From a virus: a stretch of 64,000 nucleotides of DNA. The notes below the pieces were generated by a model. That model saw nothing but the letters and a program-made list of their open reading frames with translations. It made no database searches and was not told the origin of the DNA. The translations under genes were made by a program, and so were the position numbers. Positions 3,564 through 48,416 of the stretch are shown here, one piece after another (the stretch's first letter is position 1; each line of letters starts with the position of its first letter). The stretch lies in IMG/VR virus record IMGVR_UViG_3300042261_000762, positions 1-64,000 of that record; one strand, 5' to 3'.

Positions 3564-3734
3564 ATGAAATTATACGATAAACTAAAAGAATGTGACGCGG
3601 TAGAAGATTACAAAGACTACGCCGAATTAATATGGATGAAAGCCATAAAAATTAATGGTGTACATGTTGATAATCCAAATCACGAAATCACAGAAAATGA
3701 TAAAGACATTACAGTAGGTATATTAAGCCTTTAA
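3564..3734 (+). CDS. small S4-like RNA-binding protein (56 aa, absent from ORF track)
   Basis: MKLYDKLKECDAVEDYKDYAELIWMKAIKINGVHVDNPNHEITENDKDITVGILSL; IKING..V..P fits the S4 fold pattern. Confidence 0.5.
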   Translation: MKLYDKLKECDAVEDYKDYAELIWMKAIKINGVHVDNPNHEITENDKDITVGILSL

Positions 3735-3781
3735 ACGTAATGTCTTTATTATTGAACCTTACTTATATAAGTAGCGGTATA

Positions 3782-10566: not shown

Positions 10567-11115
10567 ATGAATCAAATTAAAGAAGATATTTTAAGATTGA
10601 GAAATGAAGGAAAATCTTATTCTGAAATCCAGAAAGATTTGAATTGTTCGAAAGGAACTATTTCTTACTATTGTGGCGAAGGTCAAAAAGAAAAGAATAG
10701 GGATAGAACAAGAAAATTGAGAGAAGAAAACATAATGATTAAAAAGATTGATAATTTCAAATCGTTGAGAAATTTTAAAAATATAAAAGAAAGTTTGAGA
10801 AAATTTCAAAAAAGAGATGGAAATGATTACAATAAGAATATAAAAGAAACTTTTAATTGGAGGGATGTTTTAGATAAATTTGGAGAAAATACTTTTTGTT
10901 ACTTATGTGGAGAAGAGGTTAACTTATTTGAAGATACTTATAGTTTCGATCACATAATACCTCAAAGTAGAGGAGGTGATAATAGTTTAGATAATTTGGG
11001 TATCACTATGAAGAAAATAAATGACATGAAAACTGATATGACTCCCGATGAACTAGTGGAAATGTGTATCAAAATCTTAAAATTTAACAATTACAGTGTA
11101 GAAAAACTATTATAG
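10567..11115 (+). CDS. HNH homing endonuclease with N-terminal HTH
   Basis: CYLC...DHIIPQSRGG.N.LDN...N; HTH shared with 28889..29458. Confidence 0.85.
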   Translation: MNQIKEDILRLRNEGKSYSEIQKDLNCSKGTISYYCGEGQKEKNRDRTRKLREENIMIKKIDNFKSLRNFKNIKESLRKFQKRDGNDYNKNIKETFNWRDVLDKFGENTFCYLCGEEVNLFEDTYSFDHIIPQSRGGDNSLDNLGITMKKINDMKTDMTPDELVEMCIKILKFNNYSVEKLL

Positions 11116-13689: not shown

Positions 13690-14409
13690 ATGAAATATCT
13701 TATAGGCATACAACCAACAGGCAAACTCCATATAGGTAACTATCTTGGATGCTTAGCCAAGGGACTTAGACTTCAAAAATCTGGTCACGATGTTACTTTT
13801 TTAATAGCTAATTATCATTCAATGACTACAGGTTCATATACTGATATAACAGAAAAAGAATTAAAAAGATTAGGATGTAAAAATGTAAAACGCCAAACAC
13901 CAGAATATACTGAAAAGTTCTTTGAATTGTGTTGTAAAATGAATATAGGACAGCTTCTTAAAATGCCACAATATAAGGATAAAAAAGAAAAGGTTGAATA
14001 TGATTTAGGATTACTTTTATATCCAGTGCTTATGGCAGCAGATATTATAATAAATGATCCAGATGTTATTATAATAGGAGCAGATCAAGTTGCACACATT
14101 GAATTGACAAATGATATAGTAAAAAGAATAGGAATAGATAAACATTTTGAATATGAATATGGTGATGTAGACAAGATAATGTCTTTAATAGATCCAACCA
14201 TTAAAATGTCAAAATCATCTGGAGAAAAACACGTTCTTTATATATTCGATGAAGATTATGTAGCGAAACTTAAAAAAGCCAATTCCAACGAAGAAGGATT
14301 GAATAATCTAAGAAAAATCGGAGATTACTTCAATGTTGAAAGAAATGATAGTAATTTGAAATATAAATTGGATATAGCGAAAGTTTTAATTGATGAATTT
14401 AATCAATAG
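13690..14409 (+). CDS. trpS: tryptophanyl-tRNA synthetase, compact (239 aa)
   Basis: GIQPTGKLHIGNYLG, YPVLMAADI, GADQ..H.ELT, KIMSL.DP..KMSKS. Confidence 0.92.
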   Translation: MKYLIGIQPTGKLHIGNYLGCLAKGLRLQKSGHDVTFLIANYHSMTTGSYTDITEKELKRLGCKNVKRQTPEYTEKFFELCCKMNIGQLLKMPQYKDKKEKVEYDLGLLLYPVLMAADIIINDPDVIIIGADQVAHIELTNDIVKRIGIDKHFEYEYGDVDKIMSLIDPTIKMSKSSGEKHVLYIFDEDYVAKLKKANSNEEGLNNLRKIGDYFNVERNDSNLKYKLDIAKVLIDEFNQ

Positions 14410-14480
14410 GGATCATAGGTTAATTGGTAAACTAGTAGACTTTTAATCTACGGCTCCGGGTTCGACCCCCGGTGATCCCA
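14409..14480 (+). tRNA. tRNA-Lys(TTT)
   Basis: GTAGA-ctTTTaa-TCTAC; starts on the last base of the trpS stop codon. Confidence 0.9.
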
Positions 14481-14485
14481 CACAC

Positions 14486-14557
14486 ACGTCTATGGTATAA
14501 TGCGTAGCACAAATGCCTCCAAAACATTTAGTCAGGGTTCGAATCCTTGTAGGCGTA
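14486..14557 (+). tRNA. tRNA-Trp(CCA)
   Basis: ctCCAaa loop, acceptor ACGTCTA/TAGGCGT. Confidence 0.85.
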
Positions 14558-14580
14558 CAAAATATAAAACAATATAAAAA

Positions 14581-15201
14581 ATGGACATAGATAAACAAGT
14601 TAGAGGAACTAGAATTATTCTGGAAGAAGCAAAGGAAAGAAGAATAATTCTTAATAAACTCATAGATATTGCAAATGATTATGGTTTTCAAGAAATCACT
14701 TTACCTAGTTTAGAATTATCTGAAATTTACGTAGATAAAGCGGGTGAAGAAATTCTAAATCAAATGTACACATTTAAAGACAAAGGAGATAGAAATCTAT
14801 GTCTTAGACCAGAAGGAACAGCAACAATTCAATTATTGGCTAATAAATATTGGAAAACGCAAAAAGATATTAAACTTTGGTATTTTGAAAAATGTTGGAG
14901 ATATGAAAGACCACAATCGGGAAGATATAGAGAGTTTTATCAATTTGGTGTTGAATGGTTAAATCCAAGAGAAGATGTAACTCCTACATTGATTGAAATG
15001 GCTAAAAAGATGATAGAAACTAAAACAAATGAATATACTATTTCTGAATCTGTTAAAAGAGGATTATCATATTACACAGGAGGAGTTGGTTTTGAAATTT
15101 CTGTAGATAAATTAGGTGCTCAAAAACAAGTTTGCGGAGGAGGATCATATAAAGAAGGAATAGGATTTGCTTTGGGGTTCGATAGATTAATGTTATGTTA
15201 A
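14581..15201 (+). CDS. hisS: histidyl-tRNA synthetase, catalytic core only (206 aa)
   Basis: MYTFKDKGDRNLCLRPEGTA, RYERPQSGRYREFYQFG, RGLSYYTG, GFALGFDRL; no C-terminal anticodon-binding domain. Confidence 0.88.
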   Translation: MDIDKQVRGTRIILEEAKERRIILNKLIDIANDYGFQEITLPSLELSEIYVDKAGEEILNQMYTFKDKGDRNLCLRPEGTATIQLLANKYWKTQKDIKLWYFEKCWRYERPQSGRYREFYQFGVEWLNPREDVTPTLIEMAKKMIETKTNEYTISESVKRGLSYYTGGVGFEISVDKLGAQKQVCGGGSYKEGIGFALGFDRLMLC

Positions 15202-25098: not shown

Positions 25099-26658
25099 AT
25101 GAAAATGAAAAAGTTTGTAGTTCCGATGTTTCCTTATCCCAGTGGTAATATTCATATGGGTCATATGAGAAATTACACTATATCTGATGCTATAGCTAGA
25201 TATTGGAGAAATAAAGGATATGAGGTTTGTCACCCTATAGGGTGGGATTCTTTTGGTATGCCAGCGGAAAACGCTGCAATTAAGAATAACATTCATCCAA
25301 AAGAATGGACAGACGCCAATATTAATAATATGAGAGATCAAATGAAGAGAATGAATATGTCATTTGATTGGGATAAAGAAGTCTCTACTTGTGAAATGGA
25401 TTATTGGAAATGGGAACAGAAATTTTTCATAGATGCGTGGGAAAAGGGATTTATAGAGAAGAAAATTGGTATAGTAAATTGGGATCCAGTTGATAAAACT
25501 GTAATGGCTTCCAATCAAGTTATTGACGGAAAAGGTTGGAGATCTGGAGCTAAGATTGAGAAAAAAGAAATGGTTCAATATTATTTCAAAACGACTATGT
25601 TTGCTGATGAAATGTATGAATCAATAAAAGATATTGAAAAAGATTGGCCTGAAATTATCACTAAACAACAGAAACAATTTATTAAGAACGGTATAAGAGA
25701 AGGCGATGAAGTTAGACCTTTTACAGATTGGTGTATTTCACGTCAGAGATATTGGGGAACTCCTATCCCTATGATAAATTGTCATGTTTGCGGAACAATT
25801 CCAAATAAAGATATTCCTGTAGTTCCTCCTTATGACGTTAAATTTGATGGACATGGAAATCCAATGGATAACCATCCAACATGGAAACATATTAAGTGCC
25901 ATAAATGTGGTGGTGATGCTGAGAAAGAGACTGACACAATGGACACTTTTGTTCAGTCAAGTTGGTATTTTATAAGATACATTTCTGAATTTAACGGGGA
26001 TAAATTCAATTGGGAAGAAATAAAAAGATGGTTCCCAATAGACTATTATATTGGTGGAGCTGAACATTCTACTGGGCATATGATATATGCTAGGTTTTTC
26101 TGGAGAATATTTAAGAAGATGGGTTATATTCCTGAAGAAGTTTCAATTGAACCTTTTGGTAAGGTTATAACACAAGGTATGGTAAAGAAGGATGGTAAGA
26201 AGATGTCTAAAAATTTTGGTAATGGTGTGTCGCCTGATGAAATGGTAGATAAATATGGATCTGATGTTGTGAGAATGTATATAATGTTTGCTGGTCCTCC
26301 AGAGCAAGATTTTGAGTGGATAGATGATAACATATCAGGATGTAGTAGATTTATAAAGAAATTTAGACATGGGTTTGAAAGAACAAAAGATATGGTATAT
26401 GTAGAAAATAAAAAGAATGAAGATTGGGCTAGAAATAGAATTGATATTATTCGTAAAAGAACAAATGAAGTTTATGAAAAAAATTACAAATTCAATACTA
26501 TAGTATCTACAGCAATGGAAACTTTTAATGCCATATCTAAAACAACAGATATAAATATATGGAAAGAAGGGTATGAAGTCATAATGAATGCTATTAGTCC
26601 TATATCTCCTGATGTTTGTAGAGAAATAAGAGACGAATTCCAAAATGGAAATAATTGA
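25099..26658 (+). CDS. leuS: leucyl-tRNA synthetase, minimal (519 aa; no CP1 editing domain, no C-terminal domain)
   Basis: MFPYPSG.IHMGH, GWDSFGMPAENAA, DWCISRQRYWG, DTMDTF..SSWY, KMSK. Confidence 0.95.
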   Translation: MKMKKFVVPMFPYPSGNIHMGHMRNYTISDAIARYWRNKGYEVCHPIGWDSFGMPAENAAIKNNIHPKEWTDANINNMRDQMKRMNMSFDWDKEVSTCEMDYWKWEQKFFIDAWEKGFIEKKIGIVNWDPVDKTVMASNQVIDGKGWRSGAKIEKKEMVQYYFKTTMFADEMYESIKDIEKDWPEIITKQQKQFIKNGIREGDEVRPFTDWCISRQRYWGTPIPMINCHVCGTIPNKDIPVVPPYDVKFDGHGNPMDNHPTWKHIKCHKCGGDAEKETDTMDTFVQSSWYFIRYISEFNGDKFNWEEIKRWFPIDYYIGGAEHSTGHMIYARFFWRIFKKMGYIPEEVSIEPFGKVITQGMVKKDGKKMSKNFGNGVSPDEMVDKYGSDVVRMYIMFAGPPEQDFEWIDDNISGCSRFIKKFRHGFERTKDMVYVENKKNEDWARNRIDIIRKRTNEVYEKNYKFNTIVSTAMETFNAISKTTDINIWKEGYEVIMNAISPISPDVCREIRDEFQNGNN

Positions 26659-26733: not shown

Positions 26734-26922
26734 ATGAATGGAAAAGTAAAATTTTATGATGAAAAAAAGGGATTTGGGTTCATTTTAGAGAATGAAACCG
26801 GCAAAGAATATTTTGCCCACGCAACCGGTTTAATCGACAAGATTACAAAAGATGATGATGTCGAATTTGAGATAATTCAGGGGAAAAAGGGGATGAATGC
26901 TATAGACGTTAAACTAATATAA
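26734..26922 (+). CDS. csp: cold-shock domain protein
   Basis: GKVKFYDEKKGFGFI...FAH. Confidence 0.92.
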   Translation: MNGKVKFYDEKKGFGFILENETGKEYFAHATGLIDKITKDDDVEFEIIQGKKGMNAIDVKLI

Positions 26923-27383: not shown

Positions 27384-27671
27384 ATGAGCAAGAAAGCTAA
27401 ACTTAAGAACAGGGAAAAACGTTTACAGGAAAAACGTTCTCGTAAAGCCGCCAATAAAGCAAGATATGCTGAATTGAGAAGGCTGGGAATCAATAGTAAA
27501 TCTAAAAGATTCCAGAAAAAGAAGAGATCAGTTATTTTAGGGGATCACCCTTTTGGTAACTGTGGAAATATTGGATGTAAAAAGTGTTTTCCTGACCTTT
27601 ATCAAATAGGAGTTGAATATAAGGTGAAAATAAAACAAGTTATATCTCCCATCAAACGATGGGAGATATAA
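27384..27671 (+). CDS. basic protein with CGNIGCKKC zinc-binding motif
   Basis: ORF track. Confidence 0.7.
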   Translation: MSKKAKLKNREKRLQEKRSRKAANKARYAELRRLGINSKSKRFQKKKRSVILGDHPFGNCGNIGCKKCFPDLYQIGVEYKVKIKQVISPIKRWEI

Positions 27672-27803
27672 TTTTCAAAAAAAGTTTGAAATAATTTTTT
27701 TAATAAGCAAACTTTTAGTAATTTTGTCGTATAAATAATGAGAGTAAAATCTCAAAATGGAAAAAATTGACATTTTTGATTAAATATATAAGGAAGTAAG
27801 AAT

Positions 27804-27872
27804 ATGAAAAACATGGTTTATAATATTAATGATTGTATTTATAATGATAAGCGTAAAATGCTGATTGGATGA
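27804..27872 (+). CDS. attenuator leader peptide 3 MKNMVYNINDCIYNDKRKMLIG
   Basis: Codons 6-15 are only Y/N/I/D/C; antiterminator CTGATTGG at 27861-27868. Confidence 0.85.
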   Translation: MKNMVYNINDCIYNDKRKMLIG

Positions 27873-27894
27873 ACTATGTTTGAAGAAGACACGT

Positions 27895-27929
27895 AACCCC
27901 AATCAGAAAAGATTGGGGTTTTTTGTTTT
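27895..27929 (+). terminator. attenuator terminator of array 3
   Basis: AACCCCAATC-agaaaa-GATTGGGGTT plus U tract. Confidence 0.88.
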
Positions 27930-28081
27930 AATAAAGTTCTTTGAATTACTGAAATATTAATAAAGTTGGGTTACGAAATGTCGAAAGATAGTAGTTATTA
28001 AATTAACCGTAATTAGTGGTTCCGATGTAATGACGGAGGAAACGACAGCCACCATAGGTCTGCGCCACCCAGCAAAAATAA

Positions 28082-28462
28082 ATGAAATTAAAAATGGAAA
28101 ATATAAAAGATTTCGCCGAAAAATTAGCAAATCTTACCGTATTAGAATGTTATCAATTGGCGAAGATAATGAAGGAACAATATGGTATAGAACCACAAAC
28201 AAAAGTTCTGGGAGTAAATATTTCTCCTGTTCCTATAAAGGTTGAAAAAACAAATTTTGATGTGATATTAAAATCTGTTGGAACAAGTAATAAATTAACA
28301 CTTGTTAAAACTTTGAAAGAAATGATGGGAAATAGTTTAATGGAAGCAAAAACATTAGTTGATAACGCTCCAAGCAAACTTAAGGAAAATGTGGGTAAAG
28401 AAGAAGCAACCGCACTTGAAGCTTCTCTAAAAGAAATAGGTGCAGAAATAGAAGTTCTTTGA
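28082..28462 (+). CDS. rplL: ribosomal protein bL12 (L7/L12)
   Basis: LTVLE...L...MKEQYGI, EKTNFDVILK, LMEAKTLVDNAP..LKE.V.KEEA..L...L.E.GAEIE. Confidence 0.93.
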   Translation: MKLKMENIKDFAEKLANLTVLECYQLAKIMKEQYGIEPQTKVLGVNISPVPIKVEKTNFDVILKSVGTSNKLTLVKTLKEMMGNSLMEAKTLVDNAPSKLKENVGKEEATALEASLKEIGAEIEVL

Positions 28463-28512
28463 TAGAATGTAAATATTAACAATAAAAGCCACCTTATGGA
28501 GAGGTGGCAAAC

Positions 28513-28587
28513 GGGTGTGTAGCTCAGTTGGTTTAGAGCATCTGTCTGATACACAGAAGGTCGAAGATTCGAGTTCTTCCATACCCA
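28513..28587 (+). tRNA. tRNA-Ile(GAT)
   Basis: TCTGT-ctGATac-ACAGA; identical copy at 29449. Confidence 0.9.
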
Positions 28588-28641
28588 CTGCAGACTGTTA
28601 AAATTTCATAGGCAGCAAATGGAGCGTAGAAATTTACAAAT

Positions 28642-28708
28642 GCCGACGAGCGGGGACAAGCCAGGTCTGTAAAACCTTTGCTAGGGGGTTCGATACCCTC
28701 CGGCGGCA
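28642..28708 (+). tRNA. tRNA-Tyr(GTA), very short (67 nt; reduced D arm, no variable arm)
   Basis: AGGT-ctGTAaa-ACCT, T loop TTCGATA. Confidence 0.7.
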
Positions 28709-28741
28709 CAAAAAAAGAAGTTCTTTAAAATATTGAAAAAT

Positions 28742-28814
28742 GGTAGTGTGTCCGAGTGGCTTTAGGTATTTGTCTGCAAAACAAACTACGGGGGTTCGAA
28801 TCCCTCCACTACCT
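28742..28814 (+). tRNA. tRNA-Cys(GCA)
   Basis: TTTGT-ctGCAaa-ACAAA, U73. Confidence 0.92.
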
Positions 28815-28888
28815 CAAAAATGTTCTTTGAAATCGTGATTTTTTGACTATAAAACTTTTATATATATAATAAAAAAATATAAAATATT

Positions 28889-29458
28889 ATGGTTAAATAT
28901 AAAGATGATATATTAAGATTGCGTGAAAGTGGTCTTTCTTATAATGAAATATCTAAAGAAATAGGATGTTCAAAAGCTTTAATATCGTATCATTGTAAAA
29001 GATATTCTCTCAGTGATATAGGTTTAAGTAATACTAATATAAATGAAAAAGAAAATGAAATAAAAGAGTATTATAAAGATCATTCCAAAAAAGAAACAGC
29101 AGATTTTTTCAAAATATCTGAATCTTCAGTTATTAGGTACTCTGATAAAAAAAGAATAATATTGGATGATAATGAAAGAAAAAAAAGAAATTACATTAGA
29201 GTTTCTAACTTTAGGCAAAGATTAAAAGAAAGAGCAATAGAATATAAAGGCGGAAAATGTGAAATATGTGGATATGATAAATGTAAAAGATCATTAGATT
29301 TTCACCATAGAGATCCAAATGAAAAAGATTTTGGGATAGGGCATTCTAAAGTTCTTAATTGGGATAAAATCAAAAAAGAATTAGATAAATGCGATCTTGT
29401 ATGTAGAAATTGTCACGGTGAAATTCACGATGAATGGGATAAAAATAGGGGTGTGTAG
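28889..29458 (+). CDS. HNH homing endonuclease with N-terminal HTH
   Basis: CEICGY...LDFHHRDP...CDLVCRNCHGEIH; its stop codon lies inside the following tRNA-Ile. Confidence 0.88.
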   Translation: MVKYKDDILRLRESGLSYNEISKEIGCSKALISYHCKRYSLSDIGLSNTNINEKENEIKEYYKDHSKKETADFFKISESSVIRYSDKKRIILDDNERKKRNYIRVSNFRQRLKERAIEYKGGKCEICGYDKCKRSLDFHHRDPNEKDFGIGHSKVLNWDKIKKELDKCDLVCRNCHGEIHDEWDKNRGV

Positions 29459-29523
29459 CTCAGTTGGTTTAGAGCATCTGTCTGATACACAGAAGGTCGA
29501 AGATTCGAGTTCTTCCATACCCA
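29449..29523 (+). tRNA. tRNA-Ile(GAT), duplicate
   Basis: Identical to 28513..28587. Confidence 0.9.
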
Positions 29524-29555
29524 CAATAAAGTTCTTAAAAATAGTTTGACATAAT

Positions 29556-29632
29556 GGACTCAGGGTCTGCTTGGCGTGGACGTCTCCCTGTCACGGAGTA
29601 CAATCAGGAGGGTTCGATTCCCTTTGGGTCCG
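29556..29632 (+). tRNA. tRNA-Asp(GTC)
   Basis: CTCC-ctGTCac-GGAG, G73. Confidence 0.85.
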
Positions 29633-29638
29633 CAAAAT

Positions 29639-29712
29639 GTCTCAGTAGCTACAATGGTTAGAGCGTCTGCCTGTTAAGCAGAGGGTTATAGGTTCGAATC
29701 CTATCTGGGGCG
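29639..29712 (+). tRNA. tRNA-Asn(GTT)
   Basis: TCTGC-ctGTTaa-GCAGA. Confidence 0.92.
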
Positions 29713-29747
29713 CATAAATATTGTTCTTTGAAAGTTTGAAAAATATT

Positions 29748-30664
29748 GACTTTGTTTGGGAAGTTTCTCACCTTCGGGTGGGTAAAGAATAATACATCGC
29801 AAGGTGTAAAAGAGAGGGATGGTCACATACCTCTACCACAATCCTTCGGGAAAGTGGCTCAACCAAACAAGCATCGTCCTACCGTAGCCAACTACGGTCT
29901 TCGATCACCAGTCGGAGATAGGATGTAAGAACGGAACTGGTCCTTTGGAAAGGATAAGTGAGGTAAGCCCCCAGCCGCAAGGTTGGGTAAGGAGCCTCAC
30001 TAATTAGGGAGTGACGCCCCGCCGCCAGTTGGTCAACCGTTCGTTGTCGGAAGGGATAAGGTGTAGTTAATCTGTTCGAGCATACCAACGCAAGGGCTAA
30101 TTAACAGTTCAATAGGTGAAAGGTTTTGAAACTGTAAAAGGGGAATGAACCTGGAGTCTAGAAGAATCGCACAGTAAGGCTAGTAACCTGAAACGTATGT
30201 GTGTGTAGTGCATTTTGTACCTCAAAAGGGTATAGACCACATGAGTGGGCACCACGCGGTGACAAACAGCAAATTTGCTCAGCTGGTAGAGCAATTCTCT
30301 CTTAAAGAATAGGTCGTTGGTTCAAATCCAACATTTGTTTAAAGGAAAGTCCCACTCAACGGTAAGCTGAAAGACGTTTAATTCTTGGCACCGCAAGGTG
30401 AACCAAGAACTCGGAAGGTCCCAAGCTGGAAGAGTTTAGTTGAAAGATGCACCTAATGGTTTAGCGACCATGAACTGCTCGCAAGGCAGGGGGTAATCAG
30501 ATAGCTGAATAGGTTTATCGGTAAAAGTTGAGCCACCAACTCAAAAAGGGCAACGTTGTCGGTAAACAGTCTTGGTGACTGTGGACAAGTTGAGAACCTC
30601 AGAATGGGAATTTTGAGGATAATGCAACAAAGGTATCGACGTCAAGGATGTAGTCTCAGTCCTT
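29748..30664 (+). ncRNA. GOLLD-like giant non-coding RNA containing a tRNA
   Basis: About 900-nt GC-rich stretch with no credible ORF, many GCAA/TTCG-capped hairpins, terminal AAGGA-TGTAGTCTCAG-TCCTT, inside a tRNA array with an embedded tRNA as described for GOLLD. Confidence 0.7.
30268..30340 (+). tRNA. tRNA-Lys(CTT) embedded in the GOLLD-like RNA
   Basis: ATTCT-ctCTTaa-AGAAT; flanked by the GAGTGGG/CCCACTC stem. Confidence 0.8.
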
Positions 30665-30671
30665 TATATAT

Positions 30672-30748
30672 GGCTCCTTAGCTCAGTTGGTTAGAGCATC
30701 TGACTGTTAATCAGAGGGTCCCAGGTTCGAGCCCTGGAGGAGCCGCCA
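30672..30748 (+). tRNA. tRNA-Asn(GTT), encoded CCA
   Basis: Canonical cloverleaf. Confidence 0.95.
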
Positions 30749-30768
30749 AACTTAAAAAATGAAAGGAA

Positions 30769-30890
30769 TGACATAAAATCAATTTGGATAATGGAAACCC
30801 AGCCTGTCTCACTAGCAAGGAAATGAAAGTCCGAATCTTTCTCCGCCAGACTCAAGGAATGGTGTGTGGGTAAAAGCCAAATGATTGTCA
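30769..30890 (+). ncRNA. unidentified structured RNA (about 120 nt)
   Basis: TGACA..AATCA.TTTGG / CCAAA.TGATT.GTCA closure and ACCCA/TGGGT inner stem. Confidence 0.4.
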
Positions 30891-30916
30891 AAAGAGTGTA
30901 ACGAATAAAGAAATAA

Positions 30917-30977
30917 AGAATACTTACAGCAAATTAAAAAACGTGAACTGTAAATTCAACAAAAAGAAAGTATTCTG
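30917..30977 (+). ncRNA. TTACAGCAA-clamp RNA presenting an isolated Tyr(GTA) anticodon arm
   Basis: AGAATACTT-ACAGCAA ... TGAA-ctGTAaa-TTCA ... AAGTATTCT. Confidence 0.55.
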
Positions 30978-31067
30978 TTCTTTGAATTATTGAAGTGAAT
31001 TGAAAAGATGTTACCAACCAACGCCCTCACAGGTGAAACTACAGTGTACAATCGCGATTCACTAAAT

Positions 31068-31153
31068 GGAGATACGATCCGTATGGGAAACGGAGTGGGC
31101 CGTGTGAGGTTCATCAAATCAATGTTAGTATGGTTCAAATCCTACTATCTCCA
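31068..31153 (+). tRNA. degenerate tRNA-like element, anticodon unclear
   Basis: Acceptor GGAGATA/TATCTCC-A, T loop TTCAAAT. Confidence 0.45.
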
Positions 31154-31158
31154 CAAAA

Positions 31159-31238
31159 GGGAGTATTGCATAGTGGCAATTGCTGGGGACTGTAAATCCC
31201 TTCCTTCGGGTTCGGTGGTTCGAGTCCATCTACTCCCA
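31159..31238 (+). tRNA. tRNA-Tyr(GTA)
   Basis: GGGGA-ctGTAaa-TCCCT, variable arm CC-ttcg-GG. Confidence 0.95.
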
Positions 31239-31246
31239 CAAAAAAT

Positions 31247-31320
31247 GGTCTGGTCGTTCAGCTGGTTAGGATGCCGCCCTGTCACGGCGGAGGTCGCGGG
31301 TTCGAGTCCCGTCCAGACCG
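31247..31320 (+). tRNA. tRNA-Asp(GTC)
   Basis: Canonical cloverleaf. Confidence 0.96.
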
Positions 31321-31445
31321 CAAATAGTGTCTCCAACACATTCACGTAAACTATCGGTTGTGTGGGCGAAAAATACCGAACACTATTAATCTTATGTCAA
31401 AAGCATAAGTCACATTGTAATAAACGCGAATAAAATCAATGTGTT

Positions 31446-31518
31446 GGTGCTGAAGTACAATTGGACGTGCACCGCCAGAACGGGGCGGGGGCTGTAGGTT
31501 CGAATCCTGCCAGTGCCA
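31446..31518 (+). tRNA. tRNA-like gene with a non-canonical anticodon loop (agAACgg, no U33)
   Basis: Good acceptor, D and T arms; CCGCC/GGCGG stem. Confidence 0.55.
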
Positions 31519-31690
31519 CTAAAAATGAAATAAAAACAATGAAAGGAATAGTATCATGATGATCTACAACTACAACATAATATCCGCACGGGATGCAATA
31601 TATCTATTCCTTTTATAAAGGAAAGCATAATTATAGGTATAGACGATCCCACAAAGATCGTCTTTTTTTTATAAAAAAAAATATCAAGAT

Positions 31691-33272: not shown

Positions 33273-35300
33273 ATGAATATAAAAAACAGAAATATAGGAA
33301 TAGTCGCTCATATAGATGCAGGTAAAACTACACTAACTGAGAGAATATTATATTATACTGGTCAAAATCATAAAATGGGCGAGGTACATGATGGTAATAC
33401 TGTCACTGATTTCCTTCCACAGGAACAAGAACGAGGTATTACTATCATGGCTGCTGCCGTTACTACATATTGGAATGACCATAAAATTAATATAATAGAT
33501 ACTCCAGGACACATAGATTTTACTGGCGAAGTAGAACGTTCCCTTAGAGTGTTAGATGGCGCTGTTGTTGTATTCTGTGGAGTTGGTGGTGTGCAACCAC
33601 AATCAGAAACAGTTTGGCGTCAAGCTAATAGATACAAGGTGCCGAGAATAGCGTTTGTTAATAAGATGGATAGAACTGGTGCTGATTTTTTCAATGTAGT
33701 GAATCAAATAGAAAATAGACTCAAATCAAAACCTGTTATAATTCAATTACCCGTTGGTAGTGAAGATAACTTTAAGGGTATTATTGATTTAGTAAATATG
33801 AAATACATTACTTGGAAATCAGAAACTTTAGGTGAGGAATATGAAATTTCCGAAATACCACAAGAATATCTAGATAAAGCTATTTATTATAATGAACAAA
33901 TACTAGAATCTATTTGTGAGCATAACGATGATTTTATGCACAAATACTTAGAATCAGTAGAATTAATAACAAAAGAAGAAATATTAAAAAATCTTAGAGA
34001 TTTAACAATAAATTTTAAGATAGTTCCAGTGTTGTGTGGAACAGCTAAGAAAAATAAAGGAGTACAAACTCTCCTTGATGCTATTGTAGATCTTTTGCCT
34101 TCTCCTAAAGATAGGAATTATATCAAAGCTAAAAAAGAAGGAGAAGATATAGAATTAAGAACAGAAGACGATGAGGTTTTATCTGCTATTGTTTTTAAGA
34201 TAATGACAGATAAAAATGCAGGCAAATTATCTATGATAAGATTATATTCTGGAACACTTAAAGCCGGACAAACAATTTACAATGCTAGAACAGGAAAAGC
34301 CGAAAGAGTATCTAGAATATTTACAATTCAAGCTAATAAAAAGACTGATGTTAAATCAGTTGACGCCGGTGATATTTGTGCAATAGTTGGAGTTAAAGAT
34401 ATATGGACTGGCGATACTTTATGTGAAGATAAGAAAACATTCGAATTAGAAAACATAACTAACGCCAAACCAGTTATATCCATAACTGTTGAGCCTTTGA
34501 CAAATAAAGATACAGATAAATTAAGTTTTGCTTTACAGAAACTATCAGAAGAAGATCCTACTTTCTCAATAAAAGTTGATGAAAATGGACAAACTGTAAT
34601 AAGTGGAATGGGCGAACTTTATCTTGATGTTATATTGAGCAGAATGATAACCGAATTTGGAGTTGAATGTAATACAGGACAACCAAAAGTTTCATATAGA
34701 GAGAATATAACAAAACCAGTTACTCACAGAGAAAGATTATCAAGACAAACAGGCGGTAAAGGTATGTTTGCCGAGATTGAGTATAAAATAGAACCTGTTT
34801 CAGATGAAACAAAAGGATTATCTTTCGAATGGGCAGTTAAAGGCGGCAATGTTCCAAGAGAATATATGTCAACCATAGAAAAATCTTTCAAAGATTGTAT
34901 GGTTAGTGGACCATTAGCTGGTAATGAAATAGAAAGTTTAAAAGTTACTATACTCGATGGAATGACGCACCCTGTAGATTCTAGTCCTTTGGCATTTGAG
35001 ACTTGTGTGAAAATATCATTTCCAAAAGCATACATGAAAGGTGAACCTACTTTATTTGAACCTATAATGGATGAAGAAGTATCAACTCCCGAGGAATATT
35101 TGAGTGATATAATAGGAGAAATGAATAGACGTAGATCACAAGTGATGTCTATAAACACTTTACCAGATTCTACAATATTACTTAGAGCCAAATCGCCATT
35201 GTCTGAAAAATTTGGATTTATAACTACACTTAGAACTTTATCTCAAGGTAGGGCGTCTAATAATTTAACATTTTCACATTATGAAAGGGTAGAAATATGA
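33273..35300 (+). CDS. fusA: elongation factor G
   Basis: [35 protein letters not shown]; full five-domain length. Confidence 0.97.
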
Positions 35301-48191: not shown

Positions 48192-48416
48192 ATGAAGATT
48201 CTCAGAAAAGGTGACGATTTCGTCAAAATGAATGACGCTACTGTTCAGGACATTGCGAAAATTGAAGATAAGATTAAAGATGGTTGGAAGTATTCTCCAA
48301 AGAAAGATTACAAGGATTTTTATAAAGCCGAAAAGACAGCGACAGAAGTAAAGACCGAAGAGAAGAAAGAGAAGAAGGCAAAGGAAAAGAAAGAAAAAAA
48401 TAAGAATAAAAAATAA
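48192..48416 (+). CDS. small Lys/Glu-rich protein
   Basis: ORF track. Confidence 0.7.
   Translation: MKILRKGDDFVKMNDATVQDIAKIEDKIKDGWKYSPKKDYKDFYKAEKTATEVKTEEKKEKKAKEKKEKNKNKK

Follow-up and report, generated by a model that had tools for sequence, protein, structure and literature searches.

The DNA described here is the first 64 kb, hereafter the window, of the 104-kb viral contig IMGVR_UViG_3300042261_000762 (IMG/VR), which has a G+C content of 30% and is estimated to hold about one third of a genome. Our subject is one transcription unit on its + strand, unit 3, in which a promoter-like box, a short leader open reading frame (ORF) and an intrinsic terminator are followed by a gene for ribosomal protein bL12, by tRNA genes together with a GOLLD RNA, and by an end terminator (Table 1). 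Strong terminators on this strand between 27300 and 32000 are found only at 27895-27926 and 31641, with none inside the array. The array encodes two copies each of tRNA-Ile(GAT), tRNA-Asp(GTC) and tRNA-Asn(GTT), single copies of tRNA-Cys(GCA) and tRNA-Tyr(GTA), and a tRNA-Lys(CTT) that lies within GOLLD. These calls were made with ARAGORN and Rfam, and no further tRNAs were obtained in unit 3 when ARAGORN was allowed introns or was run at a lowered threshold. Rfam likewise returned no riboswitch, T-box or known leader family in unit 3, at the gathering score or with E up to 1. The window contains four units of this box-leader-terminator-array design: array 1 carries tRNAs for Ser, Lys, His, Phe and Trp, array 2 for Leu, array 4 for Met, Gln, Ile(AUA) and Glu, and array 3 is that of unit 3. 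We propose, with a probability of roughly 0.72, that unit 3 works by ribosome-mediated (leader-peptide) transcription attenuation and that it controls tRNA genes in place of genes for amino-acid biosynthesis, a reading strongly backed by its anatomy, its alternative folds and its comparison across phages.

The stretch is present in DNA sequencing runs from a lake and from other freshwater. Its closest public relative is LR756501.1, an uncultured phage of 735,411 bp, and phages larger than 634 kb were predicted in a survey of huge phages to infect Bacteroidetes (PMC7162821). Relatives were recovered with DNA patterns built from the attenuator and the promoter box; the bL12 protein, used as a query against viral contigs, found none. 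The orthologues of leader 3 form a set of four, from this contig, LR756501 and two IMG/VR contigs (the relatives include those labelled G1 and G3 below). The promoter-like box precedes all four leaders of the 104-kb contig, where a single extra and poor match, at 48393, is not ahead of a leader, and in five related phage genomes a conserved copy stands ahead of nearly every unit.

The most striking feature of leader 3 is its run of control codons. Codons 6-15 read tat aat att aat gat tgt att tat aat gat, all ten ending in T, and each is read by a tRNA of unit 3's own array. A sequence-only reading of this DNA had proposed this match between the leader and the Tyr, Asn, Ile, Asp and Cys G34 tRNAs behind it, and both the sequence and the tRNA calls bear it out. 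Over the whole leader, the unit's own array, as called by ARAGORN, can read 14 of the 21 sense codons (13 if a doubtful Val call is left aside), as against 1-3 for the other arrays, all of these being approximate counts. The ten codons that the five G34 tRNAs can read make up 24.6% of coding codons, and the probability of a fixed ten-codon run of that class is ~8e-7. Indeed, the run is the single longest of its class in the six frames of the 104-kb contig (208,214 codon positions; the runners-up reach 8), and it is located exactly between the promoter box and the terminator. Directly after it, at 27849-27851, stands an AAG codon.

Comparison across phages shows that leaders and arrays change together. 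When the leader codons cognate to each array were counted, genome by genome, over all permutations of leaders and arrays, the true pairing was the best permutation in four of five genomes (1/24, 1/120, 1/6 and 1/24), and in the fifth it ranked within the top 3 of 120. In LR756501 these four units recur in unchanged order and are joined by a fifth. Thr, Pro, Ala, Val, Arg and Gly codons abound in the leader of this fifth unit, and its array encodes tRNAs for the same six amino acids, so that the five units jointly cover all 20. Among the four orthologues of leader 3, both ends are retained, over four or five residues at the N terminus and over seven at the C terminus, where the sequence overlaps the RNA switch, and the core is built only of Tyr, Asn, Asp, Cys and Ile, in an order and length that vary by in-frame changes. 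The frame is kept in all four, even across a 3-nt indel. With frame and composition constant and order shuffled, selection therefore acts on frame and composition and not on the peptide sequence. In more distant phages the grouping of amino acids itself shifts, the leader shifting with the array. For example, a 501-kb phage has Glu and Met added to both leader and array, and it also has a Gln-only pair in which a leader with five Gln codons stands ahead of three Gln tRNAs. In yet another lineage, Tyr shares leader and array alike with Ser, His and Leu.

Table 1. Features of unit 3 and its immediate surroundings, in window coordinates.
Feature	Position	Strand	Basis
Hairpin closing the upstream gene	27640-27671		
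TAATTTTG box, resembling the Bacteroidota -7 element (TAnnTTTG)	27719-27726	+	Sequence reading
Promoter-like box, GAAAAAA-TGAC ... ATATATAA, common to all leader units	27755-27792	+	
Leader ORF, 22 codons (ATG 27804; stop TGA 27870-27872)	27804-27872	+	
Region 1, pairing with 27869-27881 in untranslated RNA; possible anti-antiterminator	27809-27821	+	
Control codons YNINDCIYND (codons 6-15)	27819-27848	+	
Antiterminator strand CTGATTGG (codons 20-22); partner CCAATCAG at 27899-27906	27861-27868	+	
Intrinsic terminator, 10-bp stem with 5 G-C pairs, then T-run	27895-27926	+	
Conserved ~140-nt element between attenuator and bL12	27940-28078	+	
bL12 ORF; likely start at second ATG, 28094	28082-28462	+	Pfam
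tRNA-Ile(GAT), copy 1	28513-28588	+	ARAGORN, Rfam
tRNA-Cys(GCA)	28742-28815	+	ARAGORN, Rfam
Helix-turn-helix (HTH) protein with HNH-like C-terminal motif; likely homing endonuclease	28889-29458	+	HTH_38 match
tRNA-Ile(GAT), copy 2, identical to copy 1	29449-29524	+	ARAGORN, Rfam
tRNA-Asp(GTC)	29556-29633	+	
tRNA-Asn(GTT)	29639-29713	+	
GOLLD RNA (Rfam match 30199-30662; variable 5' domain starts upstream)	29785-30662	+	
tRNA-Lys(CTT) embedded in GOLLD	30268-30340	+	
tRNA-Asn(GTT)	30672-30748	+	
tRNA-Tyr(GTA)	31159-31239	+	
tRNA-Asp(GTC)	31247-31321	+	
tRNA-like element (ARAGORN call Val(AAC))	31446-31519	+	
Unit-ending terminator	31641-31670	+	

The RNA between the leader start and the end of the terminator is predicted to fold in alternative ways. 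An antiterminator hairpin (27861-27868 : 27899-27906; -13.5 kcal/mol, z -4.5) uses the 5' arm of the terminator and is thereby mutually exclusive with it. A copy of the terminator 3' arm is found near the end of the leader ORF in 21 of 21 units; the sequence of this strand differs among unit types, always in step with the terminator arm, which amounts to covariation across the 21 units. The fold of the full leader (-34.7 kcal/mol, z -5.8) includes the terminator together with a 13-bp helix formed by region 1 (27809-27821/27869-27881), and this helix is present in both the minimum-energy and the centroid folds; tentatively, it would favour termination of untranslated RNA. A translating ribosome was represented by a mask over the A-site codon and 11 nt downstream, and the RNA was folded as it would be before the terminator 3' arm emerges. 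In these in silico folds of leader 3 the antiterminator forms for A-site codons 1-16 and not later, a boundary that coincides with the end of the matched codon run. For seven of the eight units tested (units 1, 2, 3 and 4, the LR756501 orthologue of unit 3 and two units of the 501-kb phage), the stall boundary was no more than two codons away from the end of the cognate run, and the eighth, the fifth unit of LR756501, gave a patchy stall pattern. As modelled, this geometry fits the classical logic in which slow decoding leads to read-through and fast decoding to termination.

On this basis we envisage that transcription starts from the box at 27755-27792 and that the leader is translated close behind the polymerase. 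Rapid decoding of the Tyr, Asn, Ile(AUY), Asp and Cys codons would bring the ribosome to the end of the ORF, where it would cover CTGATTGG, and the terminator would form. Should any of those codons become slow, the ribosome would stall within codons 6-16, the free CTGATTGG would pair with 27899-27906, and the polymerase would continue past the terminator; bL12, the tRNAs for the five amino acids and GOLLD, including its embedded tRNA-Lys, would all be transcribed before the polymerase stopped at the 31641 terminator. Accumulation of the phage tRNAs would then end the stalling and shut the unit off, closing a negative feedback loop, and RNA that is never translated would probably terminate by default through the 27809-27821/27869-27881 helix. 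Unit 3 would thus be one of four such parallel channels in the contig, and its counterpart one of five in LR756501. Anatomy, alternative folds, covariation and the matching of leaders to arrays were observed or computed here, and from them we infer the translation of the leader, its coupling to transcription and the actual regulation of the unit.

Several points weigh against this attenuator. The lone antiterminator helices are short and in several units are no better than shuffled sequences; with the shuffle test this weak, it is position and covariation that carry the structural argument. One of the four orthologues has a broken region 1 helix, which survives in the other three, and this helix shows no covariation. 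Counted from the box, the 5' untranslated region of the leader is only a few nt long and has no clear ribosome-binding signal; a weak or absent signal is usual in Bacteroidota. A GTTCTTTGAA motif and a TAAAGTTG box stand right after the terminator, at 27936-27968, and if this element is a promoter it would partly bypass the attenuator. The scheme also assumes that the polymerase that reads the box couples to ribosomes and obeys intrinsic terminators, and the sensor by itself is blind to the difference between a shortage of tRNA and a shortage of amino acid. Finally, the leader-array match counts, approximate as they are, would if anything be under-counted, since ARAGORN overlooks unusual tRNAs in these arrays, namely those split by group I introns and odd-armed tRNA-like genes. 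RNA libraries gave contigs of close GOLLD relatives and tRNA pieces only, none of them over the leader, and are neutral on transcription and termination.

The sequence-only reading had gone further, stressing the U-ending codons of leader 3 and suggesting that it may also sense modification or cleavage of the queuosine-family tRNAs. In a special form of this idea, the U-ending codons would tune leader 3 to G34 and queuosine tRNAs so that it would report the loss of queuosine or cleavage of the colicin E5 type and not general supply. Tyr, Asn and Asp tRNAs are indeed queuosine-family tRNAs and colicin E5 targets, the arrays of this contig and of LR756501 hold only G34 tRNAs barring the Lys in GOLLD, and any such damage would slow the control codons. 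The U-endings, though, are ordinary AT-rich codon usage. In the genome the T-ending share is 0.84 for Tyr, 0.82 for Asn, 0.84 for Asp and 0.86 for Cys, at which rate the 8 of 8 T-endings among the Tyr, Asn, Asp and Cys codons of leader 3 have P ~0.24, and among the G34-read codons of 14 non-redundant leaders of the family, 84 have a final T and 19 a final C (82% T). A design role for the U-endings is therefore not supported, because their share equals that of the genome and related leaders use C-ending codons, and AT-rich usage was one of the two observations that the sequence-only reading had itself set against the idea. The composition of the unit fits the queuosine class no better: His, both queuosine-family and G34, belongs to unit 1 throughout the genomes examined and is missing from the core and the array of unit 3, and Phe, also G34, is likewise in unit 1; Ile and Cys are present in unit 3 and are not queuosine tRNAs; and other lineages gain Glu and Met or move Tyr to the unit of Ser, His and Leu. 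No tgt gene (TGT family) was found in this contig (about a third of the genome), LR756501 or the 501-kb relative. Any cause of slow decoding, tRNA cleavage included, would be sensed by the attenuator and nothing singles out the queuosine class, so we consider this reading very unlikely and find that it contributes nothing beyond the attenuator. The sole codon-level hint of tuning, weak and only suggestive, is the choice of ATT rather than ATA for Ile: ATT matches the Ile(GAT) here and ATA the Ile(TAT) of unit 4, and ATT:ATA is 6:1 in units with Ile-GAT versus 8:7 in units with Ile-TAT (Fisher P 0.19, on related sequences); setting aside by hand the ATT that the antiterminator fixes structurally gives roughly 4:7, with P estimated at ~0.07.

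Two further explanations concern the signal and the switch themselves. Leader 3 could be a classical amino-acid sensor, opened by uncharged tRNA upon starvation for Tyr, Asn, Ile, Asp or Cys, with the array following host nutrition. Amino-acid attenuators have the same architecture, stalling depends on charged tRNA so that starvation must open the switch as well, and units 1 and 2 carry aminoacyl-tRNA synthetase genes. Against this, the tRNAs, bL12 and GOLLD of unit 3 do not relieve an amino-acid shortage, and across lineages the leader tracks the tRNA content of its array, down to the Gln-only case; we regard nutrition as an improbable primary signal. Least probable in our judgement is that the terminator acts only as an insulator against upstream transcription, the array having its own promoter and the short ORF being untranslated or irrelevant. 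The promoter-like motif after the terminator would suit such a role, as would the inferred status of leader translation, but an insulator gives no account of a codon run that is a genome-wide extreme, of a frame and composition conserved while the order changes, of an antiterminator that covaries with the terminator, of a stall window that coincides with the run, or of a promoter box that, bar its one poor match, stands ahead of leaders.

The remaining cargo of unit 3 was also examined. The sequence-only reading had placed bL12 and a GOLLD RNA with an embedded tRNA-Lys(CTT) in the unit, and Pfam and Rfam confirm both. The N-terminal dimerisation and C-terminal domains of bL12 each score above their Pfam cut-offs (PF00542, 5.8e-20, 71.8 bits, cut-off 25.9; PF16320, 2.4e-07, 30.8 bits, cut-off 25). 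A 76% identical orthologue follows leader 3 of LR756501, and bL12 was not found in the other loci fetched besides that phage and this contig. GOLLD matches RF02032 over the full model, 1-416, with 163.4 bits against a gathering score of 150, and its tRNA-Lys lies in the variable linker. The GOLLD region 29785-30620 has matches at ~90-95% identity among the contigs of three metatranscriptome runs on wetland and sediment, from two studies; these contigs come from relatives and not from this phage, their depth is above that of the rest of the unit, and they cover the 5' domain outside the Rfam model. The AAG codon after the core, which the sequence-only reading had paired with this tRNA-Lys, is common to the four orthologous leaders, and in the masked folds a stall beyond it no longer lets the antiterminator form. 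Of the four orthologous units, two have a GOLLD with a tRNA-Lys inside it (CTT here, TTT in relative G1), and those of LR756501 and another relative have none. A functional link between AAG and the tRNA-Lys(CTT) is possible but undecided.

Other elements in and around the array depart from ordinary tRNA genes. The element at 31446-31519 forms a cloverleaf (37 bits) with a non-canonical anticodon loop bearing G33, and its orthologue in LR756501 (locus L001, 5552-5622) has a 5-nt anticodon loop; the Val(AAC) call was rejected on these two grounds, and from its sequence we read it as a conserved tRNA-like element that ends the array and is not a normal decoding tRNA. The GTT codon ahead of the core is therefore without a partner in the array. 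Two comparable stretches were seen elsewhere. That at 28646-28712 has an acceptor-like stem, a T arm and a CTGTAAA loop (anticodon GTA) and is conserved in a relative (L025, ~3712-3780); neither ARAGORN nor Rfam calls it, and it may be a non-canonical tRNA-Tyr. The other lies at 31069-31155. In the unit-3 arrays of two relatives, group I introns split two tRNA genes within the anticodon loop, one for tRNA-Asp(GTC) and one for a class-I-like tRNA with anticodon GTA (L030, 7307-7520; L025, 3422-3667). The two identical tRNA-Ile(GAT) copies flank the HTH/HNH-like protein at 28889-29458, whose stop codon lies inside copy 2; its CxxC...HH...CxxCH motif was read by eye, and a paralogue in array 1 (10567-11115) matches HNH families. 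By its sequence, the segment 28513-29524 resembles a homing-endonuclease insertion with target duplication.

Around the attenuator, the TAATTTTG box, which is found upstream of leaders 1 and 4 as well, may be a host-type promoter. The 27940-28078 element is near-identical in relative G3 (L030, 6080-6220) despite more diverged flanks, and is absent from LR756501 and G1; it has no Rfam match, and over 27960-28078 it folds no better than shuffled sequences (z -1.6). GTTCTTTGAA recurs just past tRNA 3' ends and attenuator terminators (10488, 27936, 28822, 29723, 30977 and others), with 23 matches at no more than one mismatch versus 11.5 expected, and may serve in RNA processing or as part of a promoter. 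The 501-kb relative carries tandem attenuators (L021, 1710-2454), in which a leader-terminator and two tRNA-Met genes are followed by a second leader-terminator, without a promoter box of its own, and then the main array. More widely, the window is an island of translation genes (13690-15201, 25099-26658, 33273-35300), among them a cold-shock protein at 26734-26922 and a full EF-G homologue. Array 1 contains short TrpRS-like (239 aa) and HisRS-like (206 aa) ORFs, and array 2 a LeuRS-like ORF of 519 aa.

The current proposals for the role of phage tRNA genes are compensation for codon usage, replacement of a degraded host pool and escape from anticodon nucleases. At about even odds, in our estimation, the huge Bacteroidota phages of the LR756501 group operate a multi-channel feedback on decoding speed, the 20 amino acids being split over four or five units whose matching tRNAs are transcribed only when the host pool fails. 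Such failure could come from a mismatch in codon usage, from phage-induced loss of tRNA or from host anticodon-nuclease defence, and some units would add synthetases to the response as unit 3 would add bL12 and GOLLD. If unit 3 works as proposed, the phage gauges decoding speed for each codon class and supplies tRNAs on demand, and textbook attenuation extends to a new class of target genes. GOLLD and the phage bL12 would then be placed under a defined regulatory signal, giving a first handle on when GOLLD is made, and under the multi-channel scheme GOLLD would be a co-regulated part of the tRNA-supply response.

The nearest relatives of this design in mechanism are the enterobacterial attenuators (trp, his, leu and phe), which include multivalent leaders such as thr, with Thr and Ile codons, and ilvGMEDA, with Ile, Val and Leu codons. 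Like them, unit 3 has a short leader with a run of control codons, overlapping terminator and antiterminator, read-through upon stalling and several amino acids per leader; unlike them, it is phage-encoded, it joins five amino acids in one leader, it is one of four or five channels that divide the code, and it controls tRNA genes, bL12 and GOLLD, so that the loop closes on tRNA supply. In pheM-pheST of E. coli a leader peptide controls a tRNA synthetase operon, and there too leader-peptide attenuation acts on the translation apparatus and not on amino-acid synthesis, but that system is cellular, senses one amino acid and regulates a synthetase. T-box riboswitches are also transcription attenuators that respond to the state of specific tRNAs and have translation-related targets; they differ in binding uncharged tRNA directly through a specifier codon and in needing no translation, and no T-box match was found here. 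Our literature search found no published account of leader-peptide control of tRNA genes, and 'attenuat' and 'leader' are absent from the huge-phage paper (PMC7162821). The nearest printed case is the trn operon of Anabaena sp. PCC 7120, a long tRNA array induced by translational stress (PMC8421152) and controlled by the repressor TrcR, which binds DNA at promoter repeats (PMC10272220). As proposed for unit 3, an accessory tRNA array stays silent there and is switched on when translation is impaired, but the mechanism is different: control is by a repressor, without codon-specific sensing, and the array is not phage-encoded; 'leader peptide' and 'attenuat' do not occur in either paper (PMC8421152, PMC10272220). 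What is known, then, is the principle of attenuation, and what is new is its tRNA-array target, its phage setting and the partition of the whole code.

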